A stretch of DNA of 7,950 nucleotides, taken from a virus (lineage: Duplodnaviria > Heunggongvirae > Uroviricota > Caudoviricetes). The notes below the pieces were generated by a model, which saw only the letters and a list, made by a program, of their open reading frames with translations, was not told the DNA's origin and did not search any database. Numbering within the stretch: position 1 is the stretch's first letter; each line of letters starts with the position of its first letter. A program made the position numbers and the translations under genes. Where the stretch lies: positions 1 through 7,950 of IMG/VR virus record IMGVR_UViG_2547132274_000015; one strand, 5' to 3'. This document shows positions 3,316 through 3,413 of the stretch, in pieces.

Positions 3316-3335
3316 CCATCAGTTACGGAGGATTT

Positions 3336-3413
3336 ATGCAAAGAGATATGCTGAATATTGCGTTCTACATATTTGGTTTTTGCACGTTCCTGGTGTTTGC
3401 GAAGCTATTCTGA
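3336..3413 (+). CDS. Hypothetical 25-aa hydrophobic (single-TM) micro-protein co-oriented with mnt. It is not in the supplied ORF track.
   Basis: ATG at 3336 is preceded by GGAGG (3327-3331; the 4-nt spacer is on the short side) and lies 20 nt after the mnt stop. Translation is MQRDMLNIAFYIFGFCTFLVFAKLF, with TGA at 3411-3413: a polar N-terminus, about 18 hydrophobic residues, then a basic residue. The last 9 nt overlap the 3' end of the convergent gp16-like gene (stop at 3405-3407). Evidence is limited to the RBS plus ORF composition. Confidence 0.4.
   Translation: MQRDMLNIAFYIFGFCTFLVFAKLF

Follow-up and report, generated by a model that had tools for sequence, protein, structure and literature searches.

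A conserved 25-codon reading frame converging on gene 16 of a P22/Sf6-like prophage and its possible role in superinfection exclusion

What occupies, in prophages with a different type of gene 16, the slot next to this gene that holds sieA in phage P22? We addressed this question in a window of 7,950 nucleotides (nt), that is, the whole stretch of viral DNA analysed (positions 1–7,950 of the IMG/VR record IMGVR_UViG_2547132274_000015), which represents the late-operon end of a P22/Sf6-like (Lederbergvirus) prophage. In this window, a short open reading frame (sORF) of 25 codons plus TGA, located at 3336–3413 on the plus strand and identified by its reading frame and the conservation of its homologues, encodes a predicted single-pass membrane micropeptide, MQRDMLNIAFYIFGFCTFLVFAKLF. 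Comparison of homologous loci indicates that the sORF is almost certainly a genuine, widespread and previously unrecognised micropeptide gene, belonging to the module that carries the L/BTP1/Sf6 type of the DNA ejection protein gp16. By analogy with the exclusion protein SieA and with the transcript STnc6030 of the Salmonella prophage BTP1, we propose, at a probability of roughly 0.6, that the peptide acts in SieA-like superinfection exclusion through gp16, being unrelated to SieA in sequence.

The initial annotation of this locus, made from the sequence alone, described a GGAGG at 3327–3331, an ATG at 3336, 25 codons and a TGA at 3411–3413, and each of these details proved correct. The ATG is the first start after an in-frame stop, and the Shine-Dalgarno (SD) sequence GGAGG, on the plus strand and retained in relatives, lies 4 nt ahead of it. 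Upstream, an mnt-like gene for an Arc/Mnt-family repressor (3022–3315, plus strand) ends 20 nt before the sORF, with the SD placed 12 nt past the mnt stop. Downstream, the sORF converges on the gene for the gp16-type DNA ejection protein of L/BTP1/Sf6 type (3405–5402, minus strand), which carries the annotation of a gene 16 homologue in Sf6, Gally and other relatives and was aligned here with the gp16 of P22, BTP1 and L. The two genes overlap in antisense by 9 nt in the same codon register (CTA TTC TGA against TCA GAA TAG), so that the last two codons and the stop of the sORF face the last two codons and the stop of gp16. Both the 20-nt gap and the 9-nt overlap had been described initially and were verified.

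The 25-residue peptide has a grand average of hydropathy (GRAVY) of 1.20 and a single hydrophobic segment, with a short polar N-terminus (MQRD) followed by one predicted transmembrane helix. Its best 17-residue Kyte-Doolittle window scored 2.06 (residues 5–21), which is of transmembrane grade, with values of 2.1–2.5 across 17 residues for the core of the peptide. The initial description of a small single-pass membrane peptide was thus supported, as a prediction, by hydropathy and conservation. The length of the sORF by itself is within chance, since 24 ORFs of at least 20 residues overlap the surrounding 1.1 kb; the case for a gene therefore rests on comparative evidence.

Conservation and annotation status of the reading frame

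Approximately 190 loci were sampled through the gp16 C-terminus from IMG/VR and GTDB genomes, and 192 loci with gp16 of the L/BTP1/Sf6 type were assessable. The sORF was intact, at 23–26 codons, in 190 of these 192 loci and yielded more than 60 distinct peptides with neither a frameshift nor a premature stop; breakage of the frame in relatives, contemplated in the initial annotation, did not occur. Intact copies were identified in genera including Escherichia, Shigella, Salmonella, Klebsiella, Citrobacter, Kluyvera, Erwinia, Pseudescherichia and Arsenophonus. They fall into length classes of 25 codons (E. coli and Shigella), 23 codons (Salmonella, Klebsiella, Citrobacter, Kluyvera and Erwinia) and 26 codons (Arsenophonus). 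Named phages with the sORF include Sf6, IME10, Gally, L, ST64T, ST104, MG40, g341c, SPN9CC, BTP1, phiKp_30 and HF4s, and the interval was matched in 333 of 5,426 complete E. coli genomes (~6%).

The sORF is under purifying selection. Leaving out the codons that overlap gp16, the pooled 25-residue class showed a synonymous divergence (pS) of 0.276, a non-synonymous divergence (pN) of 0.094 and a ratio of non-synonymous to synonymous rates (dN/dS) of 0.29, while the corresponding values in the pooled 23-residue class were 0.691, 0.176 and 0.11. Between the classes, pS was saturated at 0.76 (pN 0.19) and dN/dS was not computable. The other frames exhibited dN/dS values of 0.68–2.6, with stops in most or all sequences. 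The mirror antisense frame also gave a low dN/dS, because its wobble positions are shared with the sORF frame, yet it was interrupted by stops in 104 of 104 unique sequences. Variation in the sORF was concentrated at wobble positions, with the ATG, the SD and the stop conserved, and the 25- and 23-residue classes differ in length by 6 nt net, a multiple of three. Across genera, the peptide pattern M-x-R-D-x-L-N-[FI]-A-F-x-I-F-G was kept at approximately 50% nucleotide identity. The comparison that the initial annotation had proposed thus favoured the gene in the frame, the ribosome-binding site, the dN/dS (0.11–0.29) and the length difference.

The upstream neighbour of the sORF varies, being mnt, lipoprotein-like genes or the tailspike gene directly. 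A mosaic breakpoint (no strand) was located at 3335, 1 nt ahead of the ATG, the position from which Sf6, Gally, 720R6, 683R2 and many E. coli prophages resemble the window despite differing upstream DNA. The sequence GGAGG(A/G)TTT-ATG was retained behind more than 30 unrelated upstream contexts, other genera included, and weaker SDs were observed in two E. coli contexts (Sf6-type and Gally-type). This distribution indicates that the sORF is not a local replacement born in this phage and that it accompanies the L/BTP1/Sf6-type gp16 module regardless of the upstream neighbour.

No coding sequence for the sORF was annotated in any of the 38 sORF-positive phage records, in which only gp16 features lie under the matches (the “hypothetical protein” under the match in two records is gp16), nor in the RefSeq E. 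coli genomes among the matches listed. Seven common peptide variants had no exact match in a 15-billion-protein collection, Pfam, NCBIfam and PHROGs profiles gave no meaningful match to the peptide, and neither the peptide nor its sequence was found in the literature. An Adipogenin match (E 0.11) was discarded as noise. According to its genome paper, phage L has no known genes for superinfection exclusion, and mnt and orf62 are the only genes given between genes 16 and 9.

The gene 16 junction and the STnc6030 transcript

The initial annotation placed the sORF in the slot that holds sieA in P22, and this was confirmed against the P22 locus, in which sieA (L005:2337–2831) converges on gene 16, ends 22 nt from its stop and is accompanied by no sORF. 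Similarly, E. coli HS1 carries a type B SieA (L196:40462–41100) with the motif FNRYPGEARKFNK, located 21 nt from the gp16 stop, and no sORF. Both P22 and HS1 have a P22-type gp16 C-terminus. Across the sampled loci, 187 of them with the sORF, a search for SieA by tblastn and motif scan matched P22 alone, and no listed accession is common to the 41 SieA-positive and the 38 sORF-positive GenBank phage records. SieA and the sORF alternate at this junction and are mutually exclusive in the genomes examined. For every gp16 type examined, moreover, the product of the convergent gene abutting gene 16 is a membrane protein. HK620 carries hkcB (L199:4814–5143), whose 109-residue product has an N-terminal transmembrane helix and a coiled coil, at a 0-nt gap to gene 16, and a Yersinia aleksiciae prophage carries a GTG-started ORF of 42 residues (L094:2008–2136), MLEIASFVALAAIVYLIRQVGILSNRVSELEKITDRLNDKIN, with a transmembrane segment and a coiled coil. 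These arrangements suggest that the gene 16 junction may represent a general “lock” slot for ejection proteins.

The BTP1 homologue of the sORF lies inside a transcript with a described phenotype. STnc6030 is a 786-nt BTP1 transcript, antisense to the tailspike gene's 5' end and the gp16 homologue's 3' end (Owen et al. 2020, PMC7067206). It is expressed at a high level in the lysogen, with a mean of approximately 90 transcripts per million (TPM), and, having no ORF above 60 residues, was assigned to the non-coding RNAs (PMC7067206). Expressed from a plasmid, STnc6030 abolishes BTP1 infection, leaves P22 infection unaffected and does not reduce the titre of induced BTP1; under constitutive PLlacO-1 expression, lawns form and induced-phage titres are normal (PMC7067206). 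Four escape single-nucleotide polymorphisms (SNPs) cluster at D23580 404041–404078, and 4/4 are non-synonymous in STMMW_03891, the gp16 homologue (PMC7067206). Owen et al. attribute the exclusion to RNA pairing (PMC7067206), and STnc6030 still appears as an antisense RNA in a 2025 review; three works in all were found to mention the transcript.

Using the supplementary coordinates and primers of that paper, we mapped STnc6030 to L006:2315–3100. The BTP1 homologue of the sORF, MERDLLNFVFLIFGLVVGKLLFA, has its own GGAGG, corresponds to nt 407–478 of the transcript and is bracketed exactly by the cloning primers. STnc6030 contains just one other ATG ORF of at least 15 residues, and the sORF homologue converges on STMMW_03891 and overlaps its stop. 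The main Northern species are approximately 480–500 nt, not 786 nt (PMC7067206); if they begin at the annotated 5' end, they would stop approximately 22 nt past the sORF (D23580 ~404228), short of the SNP patch.

The escape SNPs fall in residues 583–595 of BTP1 gp16 (ILGIGTVTNPALV). Through alignment of the gp16 of P22, BTP1, L and the window, this patch was found to correspond to residues 540–552 of P22 gp16, P546 included, and to codons 593–605 of the window gene (IIGYGTAMNPATT), which map to 3588–3626 on the minus strand and constitute the proposed target patch. SieA of P22, known in types A, B and C, is a prophage-expressed inner-membrane protein, and escape from it calls for changes within the C-terminal parts of gp16 and gp20, including gp16 G532W and P546S (Leavitt et al. 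2024, PMC10883804). The sites of escape from SieA and from STnc6030 thus coincide in the gp16 alignment at P546, and the second SieA-escape site, G532, lies 7 residues upstream of the patch in the alignment. Among 75 unique gp16 C-termini, the patch was more variable than the C-terminal average (entropy 0.68 vs 0.43) and was flanked by the near-invariant motifs TPTGQQ(T/A)IPF and YGLLxRxYES; the last ~25 residues of gp16 were more variable than the patch.

Weighing the micropeptide against other explanations

In the mechanism that we propose, the prophage would express the sORF convergently to the late operon, in the window by transcription reading on from mnt and in other phages from a TATAAT-containing upstream region of its own or from other lysogenic genes. 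Once translated in vivo, the peptide would insert in the inner membrane by its single helix and block DNA delivery by incoming P22-like phages with the cognate L/BTP1/Sf6-type gp16, acting through the gp16 C-terminal patch (residues ~593–605). The BTP1 orthologue is probably the active principle of STnc6030, with the peptide rather than the RNA as the excluding agent. A membrane peptide that blocks entry would account for the unaffected induction, for the escape of P22, whose gp16 patch differs, and for the amino-acid changes that escape requires in the patch hit by SieA escape. The initial suggestion of a miniature exclusion factor is strongly, if indirectly, supported by the BTP1 STnc6030 experiments; the accompanying idea of a replacement that arose locally does not stand, the gene being widespread.

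The expression signals around the sORF were also examined. The sORF is co-oriented with mnt, as initially described, and no terminator-like site was found by scan in the 20-nt gap, so that co-transcription with mnt in the window prophage is plausible. A promoter-like sequence upstream of mnt, CTGACA-17-AATGAT (2927–2955, plus strand), was obtained by consensus scan as a candidate Pmnt; the number of such sites is not above the shuffled expectation, and this sequence is a weak candidate for driving mnt and the sORF. In the contexts in which the tailspike gene adjoins the sORF directly (BTP1, Sf6, Erwinia, Kluyvera and others), a conserved block, cTTGCGcagcgTTGCGttaaggtcgGTTATAATtg, was observed approximately 20 nt before the SD, with the form TTGCG-N5-TTGCG...GTTATAAT (BTP1 L006:2655–2700; Sf6 L002:1455–1490; also Erwinia L089 and Kluyvera L093). 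The block combines TTGCG direct repeats 10 nt apart with a perfect -10 (TATAAT) and no canonical -35, and it was not scored by the consensus scan. It may represent a regulated promoter or operator; because it has no proper -35, GTTATAAT is taken only as a conserved -10-like element.

Several points weigh against exclusion by the peptide. Both its translation and its function are inferred, and RNA and peptide are not distinguished by the BTP1 data. The escape SNPs sit within the annotated 3' region of STnc6030, which is compatible with an RNA “seed” model, and the finding that 4/4 are non-synonymous is only weakly improbable by chance. The window and BTP1 peptides are approximately 55–65% identical over the first 14 residues and differ in the helix, which makes the transfer of function from BTP1 to the window tentative. 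The hydrophobicity of the gp16 patch is mild (Kyte-Doolittle 0.77), and, as the patch ranks third among the hydrophobic gp16 segments, it is not claimed as a transmembrane segment. When peptide variants were compared with the gp16 patch for co-variation, they separated by class and were otherwise mixed, and the association of peptide class with patch can be explained by physical linkage alone. Finally, consensus scans of the sequence immediately before the sORF, in both the window and BTP1, revealed no canonical sigma-70 promoter.

The published interpretation takes the antisense RNA itself as the excluding agent. Transcription from mnt or an upstream promoter would then enter the gp16 3' end and pair with late mRNA, and the sORF would be a real gene with a different or accessory role. 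The position of the escape SNPs agrees with this explanation, as does P22, which has no nucleotide similarity in that part of STnc6030 (PMC7067206), and a sORF-bearing transcript would run antisense into gp16 in every context. However, pairing with late mRNA should lower the titre of induced BTP1, which overexpression leaves intact, a result that the authors flag as unexplained, and all four SNPs are amino-acid changes in the gp16 patch whose P22 counterpart holds a SieA-escape site. The main Northern species of ~480–500 nt, if they start at the annotated 5' end, would miss the SNP patch altogether, and the dN/dS of 0.1–0.3 and the conserved SD would be left without explanation. We therefore regard exclusion by the RNA as unlikely. 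We give a still smaller chance to a membrane micropeptide that benefits the prophage in another way, such as modulation of a host membrane protein or lysogenic conversion, and plays no part in exclusion. Such a role would suit the purifying selection, the lack of a known family and the location in the “ant moron”, a variable region in which lysogenic-conversion genes accumulate. It would not explain the strict linkage to one gp16 type, the mosaic boundary at the ATG or the alternation with SieA at the same junction, and the only known phenotype of a sORF-containing fragment is exclusion, with escape in gp16.

The initial annotation also drew an analogy with type I toxin and antisense pairs, and this did not hold. 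The product is small and hydrophobic, and the sORF is fully antisense to the late transcript, as would be expected of a type I or abortive-infection membrane toxin held by that transcript or by an unseen small RNA (sRNA). The known type I toxins (Ibs, TisB, Ldr, ShoB and Hok) are likewise tiny hydrophobic peptides of one helix that are overlapped by an antisense transcript; the sORF differs from them in its exposed strong SD and in having neither a dedicated antitoxin RNA nor a translation-blocking leader. Simple scans, which a non-canonical sRNA may escape, detected no promoter-like site on the minus strand at 2850–3650 and retrieved nothing from Rfam up to an E of 1. In the minimum-free-energy fold, the consensus SD is left unpaired, with no occluding leader. 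The homologous transcript is abundant in healthy lysogens and its constitutive expression is tolerated (PMC7067206), and the late transcript is absent in lysogens, exactly when the sORF is on. Family-library searches revealed no sequence similarity between the peptide and type I toxins, and the comparison indicates that the product falls outside the type I toxin families; a toxin of this kind is thus very improbable. A last alternative, effectively refuted by the comparative data, is that the ORF arose by chance inside a non-coding element conserved in the late transcript, for example a 3' untranslated region or a read-through signal lying between the gp16 and tailspike genes. ORFs of such length are common by chance and no annotation pipeline has ever called this one, but its amino-acid sequence is conserved at ~50% nucleotide identity, its variation is biased to wobble positions, its ATG, SD and stop are conserved, and its lengths differ by multiples of three. 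RNA folding at the sORF was no better than that of shuffles on either strand (z -0.79 and -0.29), and an explanation by a structured RNA was rejected on this basis.

Should the peptide be the effector, STnc6030 would be reclassified from a regulatory RNA to a micropeptide mRNA, and the paradox noted by its authors, that infection is blocked and induction is not, would be resolved. Phages L, ST64T, Sf6 and BTP1, described without known exclusion genes, would have one, as would ~6% of complete E. coli genomes. The peptide would also complement the SieA work as a minimal probe, of 23–25 residues, of how gp16 builds the end of the P22-type DNA conduit at the inner membrane. The locus provides a concrete case in which length cut-offs (“no ORF above 60 aa”) conceal functional phage genes.

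Neighbouring genes and comparison with known exclusion systems

The remaining genes of the window follow the late-operon layout on the minus strand, with gp20 at 5402–6790, gp7 at 6800–7492 and gp14 at 7495–7950 beyond gp16, and the tailspike gene at 1221–2981 on the other side of mnt. The listed tailspike ORF begins 16 codons upstream of the conserved N-terminus MSDITANIVV, and its true start is probably the ATG at 2931–2933. Downstream of the tailspike gene and convergent with it, an Acyl_transf_3 family gene (1–1167, plus strand; Pfam 3.6e-32) resembles the O-antigen acetyltransferases of Sf6, Sf101 and BTP1 and is presumably a lysogenic-conversion gene. The mnt-like gene was assigned by Pfam Arc (3e-14) and Repressor_Mnt (3e-14), and its true start is probably M12 at 3055. 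As in phage L, the mnt-like repressor occurs without arc or ant, and the role of such an orphan mnt was left open in the phage L genome paper. The orphan Mnt might control tailspike read-through or its own mnt-sORF operon; the mnt-tailspike intergenic region spans 2934–3054.

In Gally, and also in 720R6 (L004), two lipoprotein-like ORFs lie between mnt and the sORF (L003:941–1360, minus strand, and L003:1465–1980, plus strand). They belong to phrog_6823 and phrog_6067, with N-termini resembling Cor or Rz1-type signal peptides, and can be regarded as further candidates for lysogenic conversion or exclusion. The 171-residue upstream ORF of Gally was considered as a SieA and rejected, given its PHROG of unknown function and its lipoprotein-like N-terminus.

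Compared with STnc6030, the window presents a homologous locus with a sORF orthologue convergent with the gp16 homologue. The 5' 310 nt of STnc6030 are antisense to the tailspike gene, whereas in the window the tailspike gene and the sORF are separated by mnt; as mnt replaces the 5' part, the two share only the sORF and the antisense gp16 tail. The mechanisms put forward also differ, being RNA pairing in the published account and the peptide as effector here.

The likeness to SieA is positional and functional. Both genes lie between genes 16 and 9 in the “ant moron”, converge on gene 16 and end at or next to its stop. Both are linked to expression from the prophage and to the inner membrane, a location demonstrated for SieA and predicted for the sORF peptide, and escape from SieA and from the STnc6030 fragment maps to the homologous gp16 C-terminal patch. 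The products themselves are very different. SieA comprises 164–212 residues, spans the membrane several times and carries the motif FxRYPxEAxxFNK, whereas the sORF product has 23–26 residues and one helix, is without this motif and showed no detectable homology to SieA types A, B or C. SieA excludes P22 hybrids with the ejection proteins of P22, L, Sf6 or CUS-3 (PMC10883804), and the STnc6030 fragment is narrower in specificity, since it excludes BTP1 and not P22. We infer a SieA-like action for a product that is not a member of the SieA family.

A broader model can be put forward tentatively, at somewhat less than even odds. In this model, the exclusion ascribed to STnc6030 would be carried out by the embedded 23-residue peptide, and the family of 23–26 residues would be the smallest known phage exclusion protein, contacting the gp16 patch in the inner membrane. 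Each gp16 type would have its own convergent, abutting “lock” gene (SieA in P22 and HS1, HkcB in HK620, the 42-residue ORF in Yersinia and the sORF with the L/BTP1/Sf6 type), and the junction would constitute a dedicated module of an arms race over ejection proteins.

Membrane proteins of phages or prophages that block the DNA entry of related phages are represented by Imm and Sp of T4, gp15 of HK97 and the lactococcal Sie2009. To our knowledge, all of these are several-fold larger (~60–170 residues) and unrelated in sequence to the sORF peptide. On this general comparison, an exclusion factor of 23–25 residues would be the smallest of its kind.

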